Virus record (IMG/VR): IMGVR_UViG_3300034069_001889
Span: 77,723-115,893 of that record
DNA: 38,171 bases
Direction: 5' to 3' (one strand)
Origin: a virus
The notes under the pieces were generated by a model that was given only the letters and a program-made list of their open reading frames with translations, was not told the origin of the DNA and searched no databases. The position numbers and the translations under genes are program-made. How positions within the stretch are numbered: the stretch's first letter is position 1; each line of letters starts with the position of its first letter. Positions 9,385-30,988 of this stretch are shown piece by piece.

Positions 9385-12300
9385 ATGAGTCCTGGTTCAC
9401 ATCAGCCGTCACGGCTGTCAATCGAAGAGAAAGTAAGACTCTTCCGCAAACGCTTCGCCGTCCGCGAGGACGTGTTCCTCGAAAAACGGCCCATCGAAAA
9501 GTACGAGATCAACAAAGATACGGGCGAGAAAACCAAGGTCATGGGCCACACGTTCATCCCGGTCTGCGTGAACATGGGCGACGTCAACGTTTGCCTCATC
9601 GCGCAGCGCCGGGGGAGTTGTCACAGCTGCACGGCCAAAAAGTACGACACGCTCTCCGACGCTTGGGTGCGCCAGCACATCGTGGGTAACCGCACGCTCT
9701 GCTTTATGCCGACGACGCCGGAAGGCGCCAAGATGGGCGCGATCGACTTCGACGAGAGCGCCGGCGACGGTCTCCAGGCCGTCTTCGAAGACGCGTTGCG
9801 GGTGCGGGATTACTGCCAGACCCTCGGCATTCCATCCTACATTGCGCGTAGCTCCAACAAAGGCTATCACCTTTACTTCTGGTTCTCGGACTGGATCCCG
9901 CCGCACCACTTCACGAGCTTTGCGTACCACGTGCTCGAAAAGACCGGCTTCGCGTCGCGCCTCGAATTTCAGGGCATCAAACTTCCCGAGGTCTTCCCGA
10001 AGCAGACGCTCTACGACAAAGAGGCCGTCGGAAACGGTATCCGCGCGCCACTCTCCGAACCGGACGTGAAGAACGGTCGGAACTGTTTCGTCAACGACAT
10101 GGCCGAGCCCTACCCGCTCCTAGAGCAGTGGACGAAGCTCAAAGACATGCGGGAGACTGCGCCCGACATCTTCGAGAAGATTCTTAAAGAGCAGGGCGTT
10201 CAAATCTACGCCGCGCCCGTGTCCCGCACCGGCGCCAAACGCCAGAAGGTCATCAAGAACGAGGATGGCACGGAGACCGTGGTCGACGACCATAGCTCGG
10301 GGCCGATCAGCCAGCACGGTTCGTTCTCAAACGTCATCGCTGCGTGCCCTGCCATGCAGGAGTACTGGGCCAAGAACGCCGCCGGGCAGTACGCCTGGGA
10401 CGTCTCGAATCCCAAGGGTTTGTTCAACGCCGCGCGCGTCGCGAGCATGAATTTAGCTCTCTCGACCAAAGACGGGGAAAAGTACCTGAAAGAACGCTGG
10501 AAGGGGCCGCACACCGAACGCCAGATTGAGGGAGCAAAGGCCAAGGGCTACAAACCCTGCACGTGCCGGTGGATGCAGCAGCAGAGTGTTTGTCACATCA
10601 ACAAGCACCCGCGCTTTGGCAATCACTGCTTCAAGAAGCTCGCTCCCGTCACGACCGAAAACGGCAAACTGATCACGAATCCGGACAAGCTGCCCGAAGA
10701 CGCATGGCCGGAGCCGAGCCCAATTCGCTACTCGACCGAGAAGCACCTGAAGGTCGACGGCATCTGCGAGCGCTTCAAACTTCTCGTAAAAGCCATGAAC
10801 CGCATGGCGAAGCAAGAAAAGGGTGAGGCCGTGCCGCCGGAGCTCGACGACCGCGGGCGCCCGATCATCAAGGAGGAGTTCACGCCGGACAACGCTTCGC
10901 AGCTTCTCAGCAACCTGATGAAGCGCACGGTGGCGCTGAAAGAGGCCGAGCGAAACCAGGTCCAAGATTACGTCCTGTCGAACAAGATCTTCACGAAAAC
11001 CGAATGGAACTCGCGCCTCAAGGGTGCGGGCCTGCTGGTTGCGGACGAAAAGAAAAAGGACACCAAGGTCCAATTCAAATCGTTCGAAATCGCCGGGCGC
11101 ACGTACTTCCTGAAGGAGGGCATGATCCACGCGATGCACGTCGACCAAAAGACGCAACAGTCGTTCGAGCGCATGTTTTCGAACTTCTGGATCGAACGCG
11201 TCGACGAGCCCGCGACCATCCGGCTGATCGAGCGCGAGGGCAAAGAGCACGTCATGTACGAGGATCGTCTCTACAAACTGATGATCCACGTTAATGGCCA
11301 ATCCAAGCCCATCACCGTGACAAACCGGGCGTTCTCCAGTGCCAACGCGTTTTTTGAGGCCTTGCGCGCGGGCGGCGGCACGGACCTCGTTTTCGCATCC
11401 TCCAAGGACGCTTACGACGTCTTCATGGCGTCGATTAGTCACTTCTCGGAGCCCATGATCGAAAAGCACGCGCTTAAAGACATTGGTTTTTACAAAATCA
11501 AGGGCGCGACCAAATACATCATGCCGAGCGTGATCGTGACGCACGAGGAGATCGTGGCCAACGACGCCTACGTGCTGGAGTTCACGGACGACGTGACCCG
11601 CGGTCTCGATTTTCAAATTCTCGACGAAGACGAGTTTAAGAAGGTCGCCCGGCACATCACGGAGGACTACTTCAAGTGCAACAACATCATGCTGACCATG
11701 AGTTGTTTCGCGCACGCGATGGCGTCCGTTTGCACCGAAGCCATCGCGGAAGTGAAGGGCTGGCGAAAGGCTCCGGTCTTGTGGATCGCGGGCGACTTCT
11801 CCGGCGGAAAAACGTTCGTGATCGAGAATTCGCAATTCTTCTTCGGCAACTTTGCGAACGTGGCGCAAACCGGGGCCGGGGGATCATTCAAGGCCAAGCT
11901 CGGCGCGGCGGACTCGTACCGACACGCTTTCCTGGGCTTTGACGACCACAAGGACTCCATGCAGGCCGACCGCGGGCGCGACATCGTGAACTTCATCCAG
12001 AACGCCTACGACCGGCGCGCGAACGTGGCGCTCAAACGTGACGGCACGAACCGCCAACACTTACCGCGCGTGCGCGGGCTGATCGGGGTCTGCGGCGAAG
12101 ATTTCCCAGACAAAGAGGCTTCGGCCGTCTCCAGGCTCATTCTCATCGACACCACCATGTCGAAGAACATCGAGCACGGGACCAAGGTCTTGAACATGCG
12201 GCAGCACTACTCAGGGTTCACGCCCTACGTCGTGCGCCACATTCTTCAGATGCCGCCCGAGGCCGTGGGTGCCCTGTGGGACACGCTTTACGAGGAGATT

Positions 12301-12981
12301 TTCAAAGGGTCCGAAAAATCCGAGGAGGGCGCGAGCGCCACGCGGGTTTGCGAAAACCTGACCTTGAATCTCTTCGGATTCCGCATCGCTCTCGATTGCA
12401 TGGTGGCCAATGGGGCCATCAGTCAGCCGGAGGCGGTGGTCCTGGCCGGGCAGCACCTGACGAACCTGCGCATCGCGAAGGGTCATCAGTTGGCCTCGGT
12501 CAAAGACGCGCGGGCTTCGGAGGTGTTCATGGAAGATCTGCAGCAGCTCTTGGCCGATCCGCGGAAGTACAAGATTCACGGATGGGCCAAGACGGATGTC
12601 GAGGAAGCGCGAAACGCCGAGACGCTGGGGTTCATTTCTCCGAAAGAACCCGGCGTGGTCTTTCTCTACTCGTCGCTCGTGTACAAAGCCGTGGCGCAGT
12701 TCGCGCGGCAAAAGAACACGACGCTCCAGAGTCAGCGGCACATCGTCCGTCAGCTCGCGACCGACGGGTTCATGAAGCTCGACCTGGTCGATCGCGCCAA
12801 CGACCGCCTGACCGTGAACAAGCGCGGGCCCGGCGGGACGCAGGTGCGGGTTTACCCCATCGTGGCCGAAAAGCTCGGCTACGACGAGGTGTCGAGCAAG
12901 GCCGCGGAAAGGGGTCAACACGCCCCGGCAACGATTGTGAAGAGAAATCAGTTGCCAGATGAATCTTTCCCCTTAGAGTAG
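9385..12981 (+). CDS. Archaeo-eukaryotic primase (TOTE-like) fused to a Cys-rich PriL-like region and a C-terminal P-loop helicase
   Basis: AEP motifs AIDFD, SSNKGYHLYFWF, EVFPKQ, GNGIRAPL. Cys cluster CPAM...CTCRWM...CH...HC. Walker A GDFSGGKT, Walker B FLGFDD, and Arg-finger-like SAVSRLILI. Confidence 0.85.
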   Translation: MSPGSHQPSRLSIEEKVRLFRKRFAVREDVFLEKRPIEKYEINKDTGEKTKVMGHTFIPVCVNMGDVNVCLIAQRRGSCHSCTAKKYDTLSDAWVRQHIVGNRTLCFMPTTPEGAKMGAIDFDESAGDGLQAVFEDALRVRDYCQTLGIPSYIARSSNKGYHLYFWFSDWIPPHHFTSFAYHVLEKTGFASRLEFQGIKLPEVFPKQTLYDKEAVGNGIRAPLSEPDVKNGRNCFVNDMAEPYPLLEQWTKLKDMRETAPDIFEKILKEQGVQIYAAPVSRTGAKRQKVIKNEDGTETVVDDHSSGPISQHGSFSNVIAACPAMQEYWAKNAAGQYAWDVSNPKGLFNAARVASMNLALSTKDGEKYLKERWKGPHTERQIEGAKAKGYKPCTCRWMQQQSVCHINKHPRFGNHCFKKLAPVTTENGKLITNPDKLPEDAWPEPSPIRYSTEKHLKVDGICERFKLLVKAMNRMAKQEKGEAVPPELDDRGRPIIKEEFTPDNASQLLSNLMKRTVALKEAERNQVQDYVLSNKIFTKTEWNSRLKGAGLLVADEKKKDTKVQFKSFEIAGRTYFLKEGMIHAMHVDQKTQQSFERMFSNFWIERVDEPATIRLIEREGKEHVMYEDRLYKLMIHVNGQSKPITVTNRAFSSANAFFEALRAGGGTDLVFASSKDAYDVFMASISHFSEPMIEKHALKDIGFYKIKGATKYIMPSVIVTHEEIVANDAYVLEFTDDVTRGLDFQILDEDEFKKVARHITEDYFKCNNIMLTMSCFAHAMASVCTEAIAEVKGWRKAPVLWIAGDFSGGKTFVIENSQFFFGNFANVAQTGAGGSFKAKLGAADSYRHAFLGFDDHKDSMQADRGRDIVNFIQNAYDRRANVALKRDGTNRQHLPRVRGLIGVCGEDFPDKEASAVSRLILIDTTMSKNIEHGTKVLNMRQHYSGFTPYVVRHILQMPPEAVGALWDTLYEEIFKGSEKSEEGASATRVCENLTLNLFGFRIALDCMVANGAISQPEAVVLAGQHLTNLRIAKGHQLASVKDARASEVFMEDLQQLLADPRKYKIHGWAKTDVEEARNAETLGFISPKEPGVVFLYSSLVYKAVAQFARQKNTTLQSQRHIVRQLATDGFMKLDLVDRANDRLTVNKRGPGGTQVRVYPIVAEKLGYDEVSSKAAERGQHAPATIVKRNQLPDESFPLE

Positions 12982-16098: not shown

Positions 16099-16323
16099 AT
16101 GACCGCACCGAAGCTCGAACCGAAGAAAGTCCCCTCCAAATCTGGACCGCCCAAGGTTACGGCCGCCAAGCGTCAGCAGCTGGCCGGAGATATTTTGTGC
16201 GCCATCATCGCCTCCCGCGGGCAGTACCCTTTAGAGGGTTTGCCGCTAATTGTGAAACAGATGGCACATGTGGCCGTCGAACTGACCGACAAGCTCTTGG
16301 AGGAGCTGGAAAAGGGGCCGTAA
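16099..16323 (+). CDS. Hypothetical protein (74 aa)
   Basis: Its stop codon falls in the loop of the following terminator. Confidence 0.6.
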   Translation: MTAPKLEPKKVPSKSGPPKVTAAKRQQLAGDILCAIIASRGQYPLEGLPLIVKQMAHVAVELTDKLLEELEKGP

Positions 16324-16338
16324 TTGGCCCCTTTTTTT
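16310..16338 (+). terminator. Rho-independent terminator (possibly bidirectional)
   Basis: AAAAGGGGCC-gtaatt-GGCCCC-T7. Confidence 0.8.
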
Positions 16339-16350
16339 AGCCTTGTGTCT

Positions 16351-16406
16351 TTACCGTGTCTGCCGGACACGGTAAGCCTTAGCGTAATTTCAAATTACGC
16401 TAAGGC
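16351..16406. promoter_or_regulatory. Two abutting perfect inverted repeats upstream of the antirepressor (candidate operators)
   Basis: TTACCGTGTC-5nt-GACACGGTAA (16351-16375) and GCCTTAGCGTAATTT-c-AAATTACGCTAAGGC (16376-16406). Confidence 0.5.
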
Positions 16407-16472
16407 CGATATAGCGCATTTTCAGGCATAAGTTCTTTGATGAGGGCATTCCGCCTTCTCAAGGAGACACAT

Positions 16473-17357: not shown

Positions 17358-17564
17358 ATGAGAGATTTTATTCTTCAGTTTTTCGCCTACGAGCACCTCC
17401 ACAAAGATCTTCAAGAGGTTTCAAAGCCCTTCTCGGAGCTCGCCGAACTCATGTACAAGTACCTGCCTAGCAACTCGGAGCGCGCCACGTGCCTGCGTAA
17501 ACTCCTTGAGGCCAAGGACTGTGCGGTGCGCGCGCACCTCGGCGGTCATCAGAGTCGTGGATGA
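17358..17564 (+). CDS. Small helical phage protein, possibly related to the Acb2/Tad1 hairpin
   Basis: ILQFFAYEHL...VSKPF...LPSNSERATCLRKLLEAKDCAVRA; AAGGAG RBS. Confidence 0.55.
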   Translation: MRDFILQFFAYEHLHKDLQEVSKPFSELAELMYKYLPSNSERATCLRKLLEAKDCAVRAHLGGHQSRG

Positions 17565-17983
17565 AGAAAACGTACGAAATTGATACGGATGACCTAACCG
17601 AGCCGGAAGAGCAGCTGGCGTTTCTAATCAACGAGTGCGTGATCTTCTGCAACAACGGCTGGTGGGACGAGAAGTGGCCAAAAGACGCCATCTCGCTCCA
17701 CGTCAACTGCAACGACATCTTCGCGTGGGGTTGCGCCGACTCCGAAGATATTCGCTGTGGCGAGCTCAAAGATCTCACCGACCTCTATCTCAAAGACGAG
17801 GCGTGGGGTGCGGCCGTATGGTGCATTAAAAAGCGTCGCCAGATGCCCCAAGCCCCCGTGGCAAAAGACATGCGGGAGGCCGGCTACAATCTCGAAGAGT
17901 TGATTGCTACCCCTATTGACGAGATTGCGGAAAAACCCCTAGACTCAAACGTGAACGAGAAGCACCTGAGCCCGGAGACGTGA
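17561..17983 (+). CDS. Hypothetical phage protein (140 aa)
   Basis: ATGA overlap with the previous stop; VNCNDIFAWGCAD motif. Confidence 0.7.
   Translation: MKKTYEIDTDDLTEPEEQLAFLINECVIFCNNGWWDEKWPKDAISLHVNCNDIFAWGCADSEDIRCGELKDLTDLYLKDEAWGAAVWCIKKRRQMPQAPVAKDMREAGYNLEELIATPIDEIAEKPLDSNVNEKHLSPET
17916..17945 (+). promoter_or_regulatory. Sigma70-like promoter for the ncRNA at 17951
   Basis: TTGACG-18 nt-TAGACT, ending 5 nt before the first base of the terminal stem. Confidence 0.6.
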
Positions 17984-18082
17984 GTGCTTGCGCCTCACCG
18001 AGGGTAGCGATGGACACGGCTTGGCTTTGACCCTTGCACGCCCTGGAGCCTGAGCCGGAAATAGCGCGCCGGCCTCGTTCAC
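17951..18082 (+). ncRNA. Unknown structured ncRNA E (132 nt)
   Basis: Terminal stem GTGAACGAG/CTCGTTCAC. Hairpin AAGCAC/GTGCTT, helix AGGGT/ACCCT, and a 3' hairpin GCCGG-aaatagcgcg-CCGGC abutting the terminal stem. Own promoter and T8 tail. Confidence 0.7.
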
Positions 18083-18139
18083 TTTTTTTTACTCCTGTGG
18101 TCTAATGAGCCCAATCGCACAGGAGTTTTTGAAGCCACC

Positions 18140-18433
18140 ATGCTCGGCATTTACTTTGGAATCGGTTCGCTTATTTCAATGGGTTCTTATTGCTATTTAA
18201 CAATTTTAGAAACTGACGGCCATCTCTCCCGCGAAGAAGAAATGACCCTTTGGACCATTCGCAACCAACCCATTGTTGGTGCGTTCTCACTGACGGCGCT
18301 CGCCGTCTTGTGGCCGGTGGTAGTCCTTTCGGCGCTCGGCAGCATGGCCGCGCAACTCAAACACCACCTGCGTGCCTACGTCAGGGCGCGGTCAATCCGC
18401 CGTCTGCAGCGATCTCACGCCACTTCGCAATGA
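18140..18433 (+). CDS. Membrane protein (97 aa)
   Basis: Two hydrophobic segments; AGGAG upstream. Confidence 0.55.
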   Translation: MLGIYFGIGSLISMGSYCYLTILETDGHLSREEEMTLWTIRNQPIVGAFSLTALAVLWPVVVLSALGSMAAQLKHHLRAYVRARSIRRLQRSHATSQ

Positions 18434-18638
18434 GAAACGTCCGGTCCTCAAACTCCGGCCAGAACGGCGTTCCCGGGCCACTCATAGGCACGCACTGCGC
18501 GTAGATCTCGGTCGCGGTTTGAAGCTCTTCGAGCACCCGTAGACACAATTGCTCGGACGAGTAACGCCCAACCGTTTGCGTGTGAGGCGGAAACTGGTGC
18601 GTGGACGAGTACAACGTGACGATCAGTAGGTAAATCAT
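18381..18638 (-). CDS. Hypothetical protein (85 aa)
   Basis: Plausible ORF with a TTGCGT...TGcTACGGT promoter-like sequence immediately upstream. Confidence 0.5.
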   Translation of the reverse strand: MIYLLIVTLYSSTHQFPPHTQTVGRYSSEQLCLRVLEELQTATEIYAQCVPMSGPGTPFWPEFEDRTFLIAKWREIAADGGLTAP

Positions 18639-18719
18639 GCGGAAACCGTAGCACCGGGTTTTCCAAACGCAAGATTATTTAGATCCGACGCGAGAAGTCT
18701 GATACTACTTTTACTTCAT

Positions 18720-18859
18720 GGGTGCGCCAGCGCGCTATCTTTAGGGTCGGTCGGACGAGGCTGAGTTAAGGTAAAAGTTTTTACCTTAACCGGGTTGCAC
18801 GGTAAAACACGTGATGGGTAGCGAGCGGACCAAGATTCTTTAGAACGCCTGGCGTACCC
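18720..18859 (+). ncRNA. Unknown structured ncRNA F (140 nt)
   Basis: 11-bp terminal stem GGGTGCGCCAG/CTGGCGTACCC; its G-U pair favours the + strand. Internal CGCTATC/GGTAGCG helix and a 12-bp hairpin at 18765-18790. Intergenic. Confidence 0.55.
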
Positions 18860-18906
18860 GCCTTACTTTCTCGTTTTCTAGAAACAATTCACTACATTTG
18901 ATCTGA

Positions 18907-18940
18907 GGCGATAGTTTCTAACTAACTAGAAACTATCGCC
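18907..18940. repeat. 14-bp perfect inverted repeat in AT-rich intergenic DNA
   Basis: GGCGATAGTTTCTA-actaac-TAGAAACTATCGCC. Confidence 0.85.
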
Positions 18941-19001
18941 GGTTATGTTTCGTGGTTGTCTATTTAAACTAACATTAAGCCCTTAAAGTTAATTTAAACA
19001 C

Positions 19002-27611: not shown

Positions 27612-27682
27612 CGCGGGTTGGAGGAGTGGTCCCTTGCTAGGTTCATACCCTGGAGACGTCGGTTCGAACCCGGCACCCGCTA
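27612..27682 (+). tRNA. tRNA-Met(CAU), initiator-like
   Basis: Cloverleaf; anticodon arm CTAGG-ttCATac-CCTGG; GGTTCGAAC T loop; C1:U72 mismatch; no encoded CCA. Confidence 0.88.
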
Positions 27683-27699
27683 CTTTGATTTGTTTTTAT

Positions 27700-28075
27700 G
27701 GGGGCATACTGGTTTCGACACGGGACCAAGACGCTCGCCTGCACGCCGGGGATGAATTCGAACCCCGTTATCAAACGAGTTCACATGTACATGGCGAATC
27801 GCAAGATTTCTCCATGAAAAACGCTGCCTAGACAGCAGTGATTTTTCGGGGCACGCAGCCTGGCAACAGAACGCGCAACAAGAGGAAACGCAGCCGCACC
27901 TCTTTAAATTAGGCGGAACCCGGTTGCCAGACCGGGACTAACAAAACTGGATGGTGGAGAGCGTACGAAGCTTAGCCGTTTCGTACCCCATGTAGGTTCC
28001 GTCTCACGGAACTAAGCGTGTAGAGGGTGAGTGATCAAAGTTTTGTGGACGAGGGTTCGATCCCCTCTGCCTCCA
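27700..28075 (+). ncRNA. ssrA: tmRNA
   Basis: 5' GGGGGCATACTGGTTTCGAC; 3' GGACGAGGGTTCGATCCCCTCTGCCTCCA with a G3-U70 pair. Tag frame 27793-27831 reads GESQDFSMKNAA-stop. Confidence 0.93.
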
Positions 28076-28093
28076 CTTTTTGTTTTTGTTTGT

Positions 28094-28169
28094 TGGTCGG
28101 TACCATAATTGGCAATGGGCCAAACTGTTAATTTGGAATATGGAAGTTCGAGGCTTCCCCGGCCAACCA
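28094..28169 (+). tRNA. tRNA-Asn(GUU)
   Basis: CCAAA-ctGTTaa-TTTGG; acceptor TGGTCGG/CCGGCCA; ACCA end. Confidence 0.9.
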
Positions 28170-28176
28170 TTTTTTT

Positions 28177-28248
28177 GGGTCTGTAGTTTAAACGGTAGAA
28201 TGCCGGATTCCAAATCCGGTGATCGAGGTTCGAATCCTTGCGGGCCCG
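28177..28248 (+). tRNA. tRNA-Trp(CCA)
   Basis: CCGGA-ttCCAaa-TCCGG; GGTTCGAATCC; G discriminator. Confidence 0.9.
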
Positions 28249-28258
28249 CAGTTTTTAT

Positions 28259-28347
28259 GGAAAGTTGGCAGAGTGGTCTATCGCGCCCGCCTTGAAAGCG
28301 GGAGGACCTTGAAAGAGGTTCCGTGGGTTCGAATCCTACACTTTCCT
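28259..28347 (+). tRNA. tRNA-Ser(UGA)
   Basis: CCCGC-ctTGAaa-GCGGG; long variable arm; acceptor GGAAAGT/ACTTTCC. Confidence 0.92.
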
Positions 28348-28369
28348 CAGTTTTATAGAAGGAGCAACT

Positions 28370-28540
28370 ATGGAAAATAGAAAAGTCATTCAGCTCACCA
28401 TTTCGGCTCCAAACGTCAATGACCCCGACCGAGTGTTTCCGATTCTGTTTGCTTTATGCGATGACGGCACCATCTGGTGGTCAAACGTCAGCAATGAATC
28501 TGAAAATTGGCAGCTGTACAAACAAGTTCCTACATCTTAA
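28370..28540 (+). CDS. Small hypothetical protein (56 aa) inside the tRNA cluster, not in ORF track
   Basis: AAGGAG RBS; MENRKVIQLTISAPN...LFALCDDGTIWW...W. Confidence 0.7.
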   Translation: MENRKVIQLTISAPNVNDPDRVFPILFALCDDGTIWWSNVSNESENWQLYKQVPTS

Positions 28541-28553
28541 ATCTCTTTCTTAC

Positions 28554-28630
28554 GCGGTTATAGTTCAGAGGCCTAGAACGCTCGCCTGTCACGCGAGAGG
28601 TCACGAGTTCGAATCTCGTTAGCCGCGCCA
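28554..28630 (+). tRNA. tRNA-Asp(GUC)
   Basis: CTCGC-ctGTCac-GCGAG; GCCA end. Confidence 0.93.
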
Positions 28631-28637
28631 TTTTTAT

Positions 28638-28901
28638 TTGCTTATGACCGTCACCTACACCAAATCCGAAGCCCTCCTAATCAAGTACTTTCGCGACCTC
28701 CTCCAAGATTTGTGGGATGAGGGTATGAATACCAAGAAAGACCCCGAGGACCGTCTCGCCGCGCTCGTGATAAAAATCAATGGCGCACTGACCCTAGCCA
28801 ACGTCATGGCGGACGAGACAGAATTTGGGAAATTCATCACGTACCTCAAGGAGACTCACAATGATAACGATCAAAGACGAAAGCCAACGGGTACCGATTA
28901 A
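28638..28901 (+). CDS. Hypothetical protein (about 85 aa)
   Basis: ORF between tRNA-Asp and rtcB, overlapping the rtcB start. Confidence 0.55.
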   Translation: MLMTVTYTKSEALLIKYFRDLLQDLWDEGMNTKKDPEDRLAALVIKINGALTLANVMADETEFGKFITYLKETHNDNDQRRKPTGTD

Positions 28902-30042
28902 ACTCTGGGCCGACGAGGTCGAGCCCCAGGCCATGGCCCAGCTCAAGAACACGGCCGGCCTTCCCTTCGTGTTCAAACACGTCGCCGCCATGCCGGACGT
29001 GCACTTTGGCCTTGGCGCCACCGTGGGCTCCGTCGTCGCGACCAAGGGCGCGGTCGTACCCGCGGCGGTGGGGGTCGACATCGGATGCGGCATGATGGCG
29101 GTTCAGCTCGACGCGGACGTGCGCATCGCGCGCGATAAGGCCGCGGTCATCCGCCACTCGATCGAGCGGTCCATACCCGTAGGATTCGACCAGCACCGGA
29201 CAAATCAAGACGAAGAGATGGGACTGCTTCACCTGACCTGGGCCGACATTGCGTCCGAGAATGCCGACAAACGTCTTTATGAAAAAGCAGCGCGGCAGAT
29301 GGGCACGCTCGGGGGCGGCAATCACTTTATTGAGCTCTGCGAGGACACGAACGGTGGCTTCTGGGTCATGCTCCACTCCGGGTCCCGCGGCGTCGGGAAC
29401 CGACTCGCCCGCTGGCACATGAACGAGGCTAAAGGCCTCATGCGGAAGATGTTCATCGAGCTGCCGGACCCCGACCTCGCCTACTTTGCCGAACAAACCA
29501 AAGAGTACGATGCCTACATGACGGACCTTTATTGGGCGCAAAATTACGCGAAGCGAAATCGCGAGGTCATGATGGAGCGGGTCCTCAAAGACATCTCCCA
29601 CGCCTTCGGCCTCGGCGGCGCCCCCATTCCAAAGCTCCGCGAGATCAACTGCCACCACAACTACGCCGAGACGGAAAACCACTACGGCGAGAACGTGCTG
29701 GTCACCCGAAAAGGCGCCGTACGGGCCCGGGAGGGCGATTACGGCATCATTCCCGGCTCCATGGGGACGCGGTCTTACATCGTGAAGGGAAAGGGCAACT
29801 TCCAGAGCTTCTGCTCCTGCAGCCACGGCGCGGGGCGTAAGATGTCCCGGAACCAAGCGCGCGCCCAATACACGGTTGAGGATCTGGCCAAGCAGACCGA
29901 AGGGGTCAACTGTCGGAAAGACGAGGGGGTTCTCGACGAGCTGCCCTCGGCGTACAAAGACATCGACACCGTCATGGCGAATCAGCAGGACCTGGTCGAG
30001 GTCGTGGCCGAGCTCAAGCAATTCGTTTGCATTAAGGGCTAA
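28861..30042 (+). CDS. rtcB: RtcB RNA ligase (3'-phosphate/5'-OH)
   Basis: MPDVH, VGVDIGCG, GTLGGGNHFIE, HSGSRG, CHHNY, RKGA, IPGSMG, SHGAGR, AYKDI; AAGGAG RBS. Confidence 0.97.
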   Translation: MITIKDESQRVPIKLWADEVEPQAMAQLKNTAGLPFVFKHVAAMPDVHFGLGATVGSVVATKGAVVPAAVGVDIGCGMMAVQLDADVRIARDKAAVIRHSIERSIPVGFDQHRTNQDEEMGLLHLTWADIASENADKRLYEKAARQMGTLGGGNHFIELCEDTNGGFWVMLHSGSRGVGNRLARWHMNEAKGLMRKMFIELPDPDLAYFAEQTKEYDAYMTDLYWAQNYAKRNREVMMERVLKDISHAFGLGGAPIPKLREINCHHNYAETENHYGENVLVTRKGAVRAREGDYGIIPGSMGTRSYIVKGKGNFQSFCSCSHGAGRKMSRNQARAQYTVEDLAKQTEGVNCRKDEGVLDELPSAYKDIDTVMANQQDLVEVVAELKQFVCIKG

Positions 30043-30047
30043 CGAAG

Positions 30048-30084
30048 TTAGGGAATGTTAGTCAGACGGGCTAACATTCCCTAA
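30048..30084. repeat. 14-bp perfect inverted repeat between rtcB and ncRNA B
   Basis: TTAGGGAATGTTAG-9nt-CTAACATTCCCTAA; no T tail. Confidence 0.85.
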
Positions 30085-30107
30085 TATTATCTGATAGACC
30101 TAATATC

Positions 30108-30335
30108 GAACGTGATTGCGTATAAGCTGTGGCAATTGCTAATGCCCGCACAATGCGACTTCGAGGACCCTCACTGGCAAGGTTGTGTCTGAAAAGCGGG
30201 GCCACTAGGATACGTAGGTCGGTTAGGACCGAAAGAGTACTGAGACGAATATAATGGTGAATTGACACCTGCCCTAACGGGTATTCGCGAGTCGGGAAAT
30301 CTCTTTCACAACCGGAGTCGCGCCCGGTCACGTTC
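30108..30335 (+). ncRNA. Unknown structured ncRNA B (228 nt)
   Basis: Terminal stem GAACGTG/CACGTTC. 5' GCGTatAAGC motif and 3' hairpin ACCGG-agtcgcgc-CCGGT. Ends 5 nt before tRNA-Phe. Confidence 0.75.
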
Positions 30336-30340
30336 TTTAT

Positions 30341-30416
30341 GGACAGGTAGCTCAGTTGGTAGAGCACCGGTTTGAAGCGCCGGGTGTGGTAGGTTCAACT
30401 CCTACCCTGTCCACCA
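30341..30416 (+). tRNA. tRNA-Phe(GAA)
   Basis: CCGGT-ttGAAgc-GCCGG; acceptor GGACAGG/CCTGTCC; ACCA end. Confidence 0.92.
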
Positions 30417-30428
30417 TTTTACATTTCT

Positions 30429-30525
30429 GGAACGTGGCTCGTGTCCAAGAGGCTCCGGCCGGTGCGCACCGGTACAGGATGAGGGATTAAGTCGGCGCCG
30501 CCCAACCCGTAAACGGCCACGTTCT
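30429..30525 (+). ncRNA. Unknown structured ncRNA C (97 nt)
   Basis: Terminal stem GGAACGTGGC/GCCACGTTCT; internal CCGGT-gcgc-ACCGG hairpin; long T run after. Confidence 0.65.
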
Positions 30526-30589
30526 TTTTTTTCTTACTAATTAATTAAATTACTTAGACAGAGTCGGACTGATTTGCTTAATTAATTAC

Positions 30590-30814
30590 GAACGTGAAGC
30601 GTGAAGCAAGTCCCCGACGTAGAAGCGTTGATGCTGATCTAAGCCCGGATACGTACAAAGACACGAAGGGTAAAATCAGCGGAGTGGAGAAGGTTGCTAA
30701 TGCGCGCACTCTGACCTTGCACGCATGGACAGAGTTCAAAAGGCCGCTTGATGCCGGTTCGAAACGGCTAGTACAGTGGAATAATGAAAGCCAGGGTTGC
30801 GCCTGGTCACGTTC
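30590..30814 (+). ncRNA. Unknown structured ncRNA D (225 nt)
   Basis: Terminal stem GAACGTG/CACGTTC. 5' GCGTgAAGC motif and 3' hairpin GCCAG-ggttgcgc-CTGGT. Ends 11 nt before tRNA-Tyr. Confidence 0.75.
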
Positions 30815-30825
30815 AACTTTTTTAC

Positions 30826-30911
30826 GCGTTGTTGCGGGGAATTGGTAACCCAGCGGATTGTAAATCCGTGCCCTCACGGGTCTGGTGGTTCGAGTCCATC
30901 ACAACGCACCA
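30826..30911 (+). tRNA. tRNA-Tyr(GUA)
   Basis: GCGGA-ttGTAaa-TCCGT; long variable arm; ACCA end. Confidence 0.92.
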
Positions 30912-30914
30912 TTT

Positions 30915-30988
30915 TCGGGATTGGTGCATCGGTAGCACGTCAGACTTTGATTCTGAAGAGCGAGGTTCGATTCCTTGATCCCGAGCCA
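30915..30988 (+). tRNA. tRNA-Gln(UUG)
   Basis: TCAGA-ctTTGat-TCTGA; acceptor TCGGGAT/ATCCCGA; GCCA end. Confidence 0.92.

Follow-up and report, generated by a model that had tools for sequence, protein, structure and literature searches.

A putative shrunken paralogue of a tRNA-island RNA at a gene border in a phage genome

Phage genomes carry many structured RNAs without an assigned role beside their transfer RNA (tRNA) genes. The species 1 and species 2 RNAs of phage T4 have been known for decades; encoded at the end of the tRNA cluster by rnaC (139 nucleotides, nt) and rnaD (119 nt), they are still annotated only as 'small, stable RNA' and, to our knowledge, their function is still unknown. 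Here, we describe element E, an RNA element at approximately 17947-18090 (+ strand) of a 38,171-nt window, which comprises the last 38 kilobases (kb) of a single virus record of 115,893 base pairs (bp) (IMG/VR record IMGVR_UViG_3300034069_001889, positions 77,723 to 115,893; 55% G+C; estimated completeness 74%). E appears to be a rare paralogue of such an RNA outside the tRNA context. The T4 rnaC and rnaD RNAs are the closest described kind, being likewise small structured phage RNAs of comparable size tied to a tRNA island, but they are unrelated by the family model introduced below, which gave no match in the rnaC/rnaD region. Unlike E, they lie inside the tRNA cluster, and rnaC has a canonical GGUUCGAAUCC T arm, whereas E is devoid of a T-loop.

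Small RNAs (sRNAs) derived from 3' untranslated regions (3' UTRs), such as DapZ and MicL, share the terminator of the messenger RNA (mRNA) and have an internal promoter. With these sRNAs and with intrinsic terminators, E has in common a G+C-containing stem followed by U8, a promoter-like site in the end of the upstream coding region and the overlap with a gene end; while the loop of an intrinsic terminator is short, E contains a 114-nt multi-branch body. In T4-type phages, PeSLs are reportedly promoter-stem-loop cassette borders, said to have been described by Arbiol et al. in 2010. E resembles morons and PeSLs as a self-contained insert between genes that is bounded by a promoter-like site on one side and a putative terminator on the other, and differs from them in that its cargo would be a structured RNA instead of a protein gene and that it is single-copy in its genome.

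The tRNA island of the phage (27612-30988) comprises eight tRNA genes, a transfer-messenger RNA (tmRNA) gene and rtcB together with four RNA elements termed A, B, C and D. Element D (30590-30814, + strand) is a canonical member of the RNA family to which A and B also belong (A/B/D family) and the putative source of E. Global alignment of E (17947-18082, T run excluded) with D (30589-30814) yielded a score of 90; 5000 segments drawn at random from this genome scored 53.9 ± 6.7, and none of them reached 90 (z = 5.4). Of the 119 aligned E bases, 102 were identical. The relation persisted after removal of the closing stems and T runs (z = 4.2; score reached by 2 of 1461 segments); core alignments of E with A, B or C were not significant. 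The shared blocks are colinear over the whole length of E, which is approximately 90 nt shorter than D; therefore, E resembles D after several deletions. From 5' to 3', the six blocks read AACGTGAA(G)CG(T/A)GAAGC at the 5' end, CT(G/A)AGCCCGGA(G/T)ACGT, CAC(C/G)(G/A)AGGGT, GAC(C)CTTGCACGC..TGGA, GC(C/T)TGA(T)GCCG..GAAA and GCGCC(T)GG(C/T)C(T/A)CGTTC. Direct sequence comparison revealed the 5' end of E (17947-17963, + strand) to be homologous to the 5' end of D (AACGTGAA-CGAGAAGC in E versus AACGTGAAGCGTGAAGC in D); automatic alignments placed it on the second motif copy of D instead. Further modules shared with D were found on the + strand at 17965-17981 (CCTGAGCCCGGAGACGT versus TCTAAGCCCGGATACGT, 14 of 17 positions) and at 18026-18048 (CTTTGACCCTTGCACGCCCTGGA versus CTCTGA-CCTTGCACG-CATGGA).

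E is closed by a long-range stem, P1, a perfect 9-bp helix in which GTGAACGAG (17951-17959, + strand; pair probability 0.99-1.0) pairs with CTCGTTCAC (18074-18082), and which encloses a multi-branch interior of 114 nt. A terminal 5-bp hairpin, GCCGG-aaatagcgcg-CCGGC (18054-18073), with its strands at 18054-18058 and 18069-18073 and a loop of 10 nt, is stacked on P1 with zero spacer (pair probability 0.6), and P1 is directly followed by a T8 run (18083-18090), where intrinsic termination or formation of the 3' end is presumed to take place. Another hairpin, H2 (GUGAG.GC/GC CUCAC; 17980-17998), was present in all folds tried with a pair probability of about 0.9, as predicted from the single sequence. 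Upstream of P1, a lineage-specific stretch of 47 nt (17904-17950, + strand) holds the sigma-70-like hexamers TTGACG (-35-like, 17916-17921) and TAGACT (-10-like, 17940-17945), spaced by 18 nt; 5 nt (caaac) separate the latter from P1, and the predicted transcription start, about 7 nt after the -10-like hexamer, falls on the first bases of P1. All of these features of the promoter-like site, the closing stem and the hairpin with its T8 run (18054-18090) had been pointed out in an earlier, sequence-only reading of the window and were found as described there. The same reading correctly placed E far from any tRNA, the nearest one starting at 27612 according to ARAGORN, i.e., at a distance of approximately 9.5 kb, and over the last codons of the open reading frame (ORF) 17561-17983, the stop codon of which lies 33 nt inside E.

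Comparison with D revealed how two helices of E may have arisen. The P1 strand GTGAACGAG is the counterpart of GTGAAGCGTG in D, which is located just after the stem strand of D itself, so that, by direct comparison, the register of P1 is shifted by 3-4 nt relative to D. In the terminal hairpin, GCCGG aligns with the 5' half of an internal D hairpin and CCGGC with the 3' half of the last hairpin of D. Since perfect pairing was rebuilt from different pieces of D, P1 and the terminal hairpin are likely to matter. We interpret E, on these alignments, as a shrunken paralogue of D with two helices re-formed after deletions.

The A/B/D family itself is real, as a pattern scan and a covariance model (R1, built from the three sequences A, B and D only) retrieved full-length members in other phages. 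These are located at L326:8667-8857 and 11012-11205, L320:1302-1489, L310:7998-8204, L325:2152-2363, L319:195-428 and L317:7523-7644, and the members in other IMG/VR phage contigs obtained R1 scores of 18.5-35.6 bits. Family traits are a covarying closing stem, the 5' motif UGAG-GCGUGGAAGCUG directly behind this stem, the middle motif CUGGARACACGCA and the 3' hairpin AGCCRGAGUCGCGCCYGGCCA abutting the 3' stem strand. Trained on seven foreign members, a weight matrix of the 3' motif ranked A, B and D as the top three matches of the genome, with 35.5, 23.2 and 23.0 bits. The family is uncatalogued and absent from Rfam 15; the search of this database proposed in the sequence-only reading, performed at the gathering threshold and at an E-value ≤ 10, returned no family for E or for A-D. 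The contigs carrying family members are otherwise unrelated, with 48-70% G+C, and ARAGORN detected no tRNA in five of the six loci. The family copy on L310 is preceded by a T-arm-like CCCAGTTCGAATCTGGG.

The earlier assignment of E to one set of RNAs with A, B and D holds with regard to the relation to D, but E is not a regular member, since both hallmark motifs are absent and R1 yielded 5.9 bits with an E-value of 1.2 (rank 17, among noise). Likewise, of the proposed common 3' architecture, the 5-bp G+C-rich hairpin abutting P1 could be confirmed, while the loop measures 10 nt and not 8, and the AGUCGCGC signature of the family is missing from E. The 5' motif seems to persist as a vestige within 17947-17963, reading CGAGAAGC in E and GCGUGAAGC in D, which is reused as the 5' strand of P1 so that half of it is now paired there. 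A closing stem of at least 7 bp joining the 5' and 3' ends, as in the family, is represented in E by the 9-bp stem, and homology to a bona fide family member is given through D. Thus, judged from its sequence, E is a derived offshoot which is linked to the family only via D, mostly via the interior of D, and no canonical member. Both have the long-range closing stem and the 5-bp G+C-rich hairpin abutting the 3' strand of this stem; unlike the family, E has no tRNA neighbour and is directly followed by T8.

In the island (27612-30988), a T-rich spacer follows every tRNA, the tmRNA and elements A-D, as in CCA-TTTTTTT behind tRNA-Asn. The general grammar of the island thus appears to be an RNA closed by a stem with a T run after it, and E conforms to this grammar. 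The closing stem of element C (30430-30532) is identical in sequence to that of B and D (GAACGTGGC/GCCACGTTC). C also carries a T8 run; it contains neither family hallmark motif, and its core similarity to E, D or B was not significant. Element C is a second non-canonical RNA-like element that is stem-closed and ends in a T run.

The searchable collections yielded no relative of E. A related phage is present as contigs in a public sequencing run (X3), where a contig of 2070 nt aligns to 17930-18318 with 52 differences. All X3 counts refer to the differences listed, and all rows listed lie at least 45 nt from the end of the aligned piece. For 17974-18108, the listed differences number three, namely, G>T at 17974, G>A at 17975 and C>A at 18015, leaving a single one for 17976-18108. 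The adjacent 18109-18139 contains eleven differences and an insertion among those listed. For the ORF starting at 18140, eight differences are listed in approximately 60 nt, six of which are at third codon positions, and for the ORF 17358-17564, 16 of 17 listed changes affect third positions, corresponding to about 31% of such sites. From these counts, the constraint on the body of E seems to equal that on the first two codon positions. E is related to D, lies 9.5 kb from the tRNAs and is apparently conserved; therefore, the lineage appears to be kept outside a tRNA precursor.

The position of E is compatible with an insertion event. E is located in a block of small genes on the + strand, a short distance downstream of two cassettes, each closed by a simple hairpin-plus-T7 terminator (T runs at 16332 and 17322). 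The upstream ORF (17561-17983, + strand) encodes a protein of 140 amino acids (aa) with 79 homologues, none of which exceeds 66% identity, and without a Pfam match. All eleven aligned homologues end with ...NLEELI(K) at about query residue 115, and the frame here extends for another 24 codons (17904-17980), beyond the usual C-terminus of the family, through the promoter-like stretch into E. In two fetched contigs with homologues of 57-61% identity, the next gene abuts and no intergenic element is present. Since the homologues end earlier and the element is absent in these two contigs, E and its 47-nt leader would be an insert replacing the original stop codon; taken together, they look like an inserted cassette. 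The protein portion encoded by 17561-17903 shows invariant NNGxW...CND.F.W..AD.E...PQ.PV motifs, and its family is present in many uncultured phage contigs.

Downstream of E, a second hairpin (18091-18130, + strand; -14.7 kcal/mol) is formed by 9 bp between ACTCCTGTG (18091-18099) and CACAGGAGT (18118-18126). It is followed by a TTTTT run (18126-18130) whose first T doubles as the final stem base. Within the 3' strand of the hairpin lies AGGAG, a likely ribosome-binding site 14 nt before the ATG of the ORF 18140-18433 (+ strand), which encodes a hydrophobic protein of 97 aa. This ORF is a real gene as judged from the third-position changes, and no relatives of the protein were found. In the X3 relative, the stems of the second hairpin are without a listed change, whereas variation affects the 3' half of the loop and the subsequent spacer. 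A weak promoter-like sequence, TTCACT-17-TCTAAT at 18078-18106, could serve the ORF 18140-18433.

Considering the above data, we regard it as modestly probable that E is a selectively maintained, small structured RNA module, namely, a shrunken paralogue of D, which belongs to the island of tRNA, tmRNA and RtcB genes. E would have been copied out of this island as a cassette. Transcription may begin near 17951 from the promoter-like site, or cleavage of the upstream mRNA may generate the 5' end of the RNA; its 3' end would form at U8 by intrinsic termination as soon as P1 is closed by its 3' strand around the already folded body. The parts shared with D would be the working cargo, and the tRNA-like frame of the A/B/D RNAs would serve processing inside a tRNA precursor, becoming dispensable once a terminator and a promoter set the ends. 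The RNA would most likely act in trans through a bound protein or RNA partner, as is presumed for D. A search for antisense targets in the phage genome revealed no complement of E exceeding 11 nt. Independent transcription of E, as suggested in the sequence-only reading, is plausible, and the only indirect support for it may be seen in the promoter-like stretch and E lying jointly beyond the C-terminus of the upstream protein family.

If the maintained-module reading is confirmed, E provides a compact construct of approximately 135 nt for finding the partner of the lineage, and the lineage is more than precursor spacer; if not, E is an unusual terminator from the remnant of an RNA gene. The comparison of E and D separates what is needed in a tRNA precursor (the frame motifs) from the parts that are kept regardless, i.e., the closing stem with the hairpin stacked on it and the modules shared in the interior. 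We also tentatively consider that RNAs of the A/B/D type are cargo in a scaffold, with the frame serving only for excision from the tRNA precursor and for stabilisation and the variable inserts being the working parts. It is equally tentative that E shed the frame motifs when a copy of D left the island and acquired a promoter and a terminator of its own, and kept the insert modules of D (GCCCGGAKACGU and GACCUUGCACGC...UGGA) near-absolutely. If true, the cargo-scaffold arrangement would parallel in nature the tRNA scaffolds engineered for expressing recombinant RNAs, and the target of the family would best be sought through the shared D/E modules.

Several observations weigh against a maintained RNA module. 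The predicted fold of E, with a minimum free energy (MFE) of -49.9 kcal/mol, is not unusually stable (z = -1.42), with 21 of 200 shuffled sequences folding equally well. A D-like fold reached -40.2 kcal/mol, about 10 kcal/mol above the MFE, so that both are candidate folds for the interior. The promoter-like site matches the consensus at 9 of 12 positions; five such sites occur in 6 kb in comparison to 3.0 ± 1.8 in shuffled sequences, which is at chance level. The 3' matrix gave at best -7.4 bits in E, which is noise, and a 5' matrix trained on five members from other phages gave at best -0.6 bits versus 22.2 bits for A; this loss of the family hallmarks could equally mean decay. With regard to the relative, differences near the ends of aligned pieces are probably unlisted, as fits the rows listed, and the listed differences are not informative for 17930-17973, which includes the -10-like hexamer and the 5' strand of P1. 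None of the three changes in E is compensatory, two of them breaking a weak 3-bp helix and one disrupting a base pair in the MFE structure. Recent recombination can likewise leave mosaic phages nearly identical over a short block. Finally, E is carried by two genomes only, and none of the listed sequencing runs holding E sequence is on record as RNA.

Across the 116-kb genome, stems of at least 8 bp that span 60-260 nt ahead of a T6 run number three (E, C and D) versus 1.6 expected, and that only these three elements have this architecture counts in favour of the module. Stems of at least 9 bp before a run of T6 or longer occur twice versus 0.44 in simulations (P = 0.08). A descriptor chosen post hoc, with a 5-bp G+C-rich hairpin abutting the closing stem, gave four genome matches versus 0.33 in simulations. 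The individual features of E are each within chance.

The points raised above bear differently on the other explanations of E. It is doubtful that E constitutes only the terminator and 3' UTR of the upstream two-gene unit 17358-17983, in which case a decayed D-like copy would have been co-opted for its closing stem and U8, which stop RNA polymerase, and its interior would be functionless. The T8 run does lie where the next terminator is expected, given the hairpin-plus-T7 terminators of the two upstream cassettes, and the lost hallmark motifs, a fold no stabler than that of shuffled sequences and the chance-level promoter match would all be in line with such a role. For termination, however, P1 and the U run suffice, and yet there are only three listed changes in the 114-nt interior as opposed to about 31% at neutral sites; the terminal hairpin was rebuilt to perfect pairing; and a 114-nt multi-branch loop is atypical of terminators, of which the phage uses simple ones nearby. 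A scan for consensus terminators gave no call at E owing to the 114-nt loop; the stem and U8 are present. Decay without any present function, with E as a pseudogene of D and the near-identity in the relative as a recent recombination patch, is quite unlikely. It would agree with the mosaicism of phage genomes and the strongly different X3 identity between blocks, as well as with the lost hallmarks and the occurrence of E in two genomes only. That P1 and the terminal hairpin came to pair perfectly again once the deletions had occurred argues against it, and so does the fine pattern of conserved stem, variable 3' loop half, conserved stem and variable spacer, which indicates selection and not a single patch.

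That E is a cis-acting leader, acting like an attenuator or riboswitch on read-through into the membrane-protein gene 18140-18433 by way of a stop at U8 and the second hairpin masking the ribosome-binding site, is unlikely. In its favour, the 49 nt from T8 to the ATG hold only the second hairpin, with AGGAG in its 3' strand; the interval from E to the gene, which is real by its third-position changes, has no clear promoter; and the conserved body precedes a hairpin with unchanged stems, as far as differences are listed, and a variable 3' loop half. Against this speak the lack of an Rfam riboswitch or leader match even at an E-value ≤ 10, the descent of E from a trans-type RNA of the tRNA island and the fact that the sole antiterminator candidate (17968-17975 with 18069-76) is broken by the changes in the relative. 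In addition, the weak TTCACT-17-TCTAAT sequence (18078-18106) could drive the gene instead. A role of the conserved block as DNA, as a protein-binding site or a recombination hotspot in the manner of the PeSL motifs of T4-type phages, is very improbable. The position at a cassette border and the presence of a stem and a T run next to a promoter-like site would suit such a role, whereas the block is homologous to an RNA gene family scoring 18.5-35.6 bits in unrelated phages, is single-copy and, except for one 11-nt direct repeat, contains no repeats of a binding array.

Known RNA classes and sequence relatives were searched for around E. In 17850-18150, Rfam 15 returned, at an E-value ≤ 10, a small nucleolar RNA (snoRNA) model as its sole match (E-value 6.6), with no riboswitch or leader and no RF00005. 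A tRNA or tRNA-like identity was rejected, since ARAGORN made no call at E, RF00005 gave no match and the loop aaauagcgcg lacks UUCRA. A Y RNA of the YrlA type was likewise rejected, as there was no Rfam match and no TROVE (Ro60) protein in the 116-kb record, which is an estimated 74% complete, while control genomes were positive. Megablast and blastn searches of E, B and D against GenBank phages yielded no match. Exact-pattern scans of IMG/VR for P1 plus hairpin and for the D/E module retrieved no element in which P1 and the hairpin occur in context, nor anything resembling E outside the pattern itself, and the two double matches inspected turned out to be collagen-like repeats.

A first exact 20-mer of E was not found in JGI metagenomes or GTDB genomes. 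A second one gave 55 matches, none with E-like flanks, which look like G+C-rich coding sequence. The 20-mer of the family hallmark had 53 matches in bacterial genomes, none with P1 context or the middle motif; four of these showed a loose match to the 5' motif about 200 nt upstream, only one of the bacterial matches obtained a weak full-length model score, and the flanks printed for the bacterial matches resemble G+C-rich coding sequence.

A close relative of the phage was not found among GenBank phages, and its helicase has no close relative in IMG/VR. The record contains a phage RNA polymerase gene; a 2040-codon open frame is seen in it. The closest IMG/VR relative, a complete genome of 175 kb with an RNA polymerase of 59% identity, gave no match to E, to the A/B/D model or to the 140-aa protein, and the E model gave no match on five other records.

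Elsewhere in the window, 9385-12981 encodes a protein of 1198 aa that begins with an AEP primase domain of the type known from TOTE conflict systems (PF22548, E-value 1.4e-28; N-terminal) and is situated between helicases of the SNF2 and DinG types. Directly after the terminator at 16310-16338, an ORF-free gap before an antirepressor-like gene (16339-16436) contains two long, perfect tandem hairpins, CTTTACCGTGTC..GACACGGTAAAG-like and CCTTAGCGTAATT-tca-AATTACGCTAAGG. Another 360 nt (18640-19000) are free of ORFs between convergent gene blocks and contain several hairpins, including a perfect one of 14 bp (18907-18940). Over 18595-18899, the X3 relative shows 19 differences, none of them listed in the central part, and 18640-19000 may be a further conserved non-coding element.

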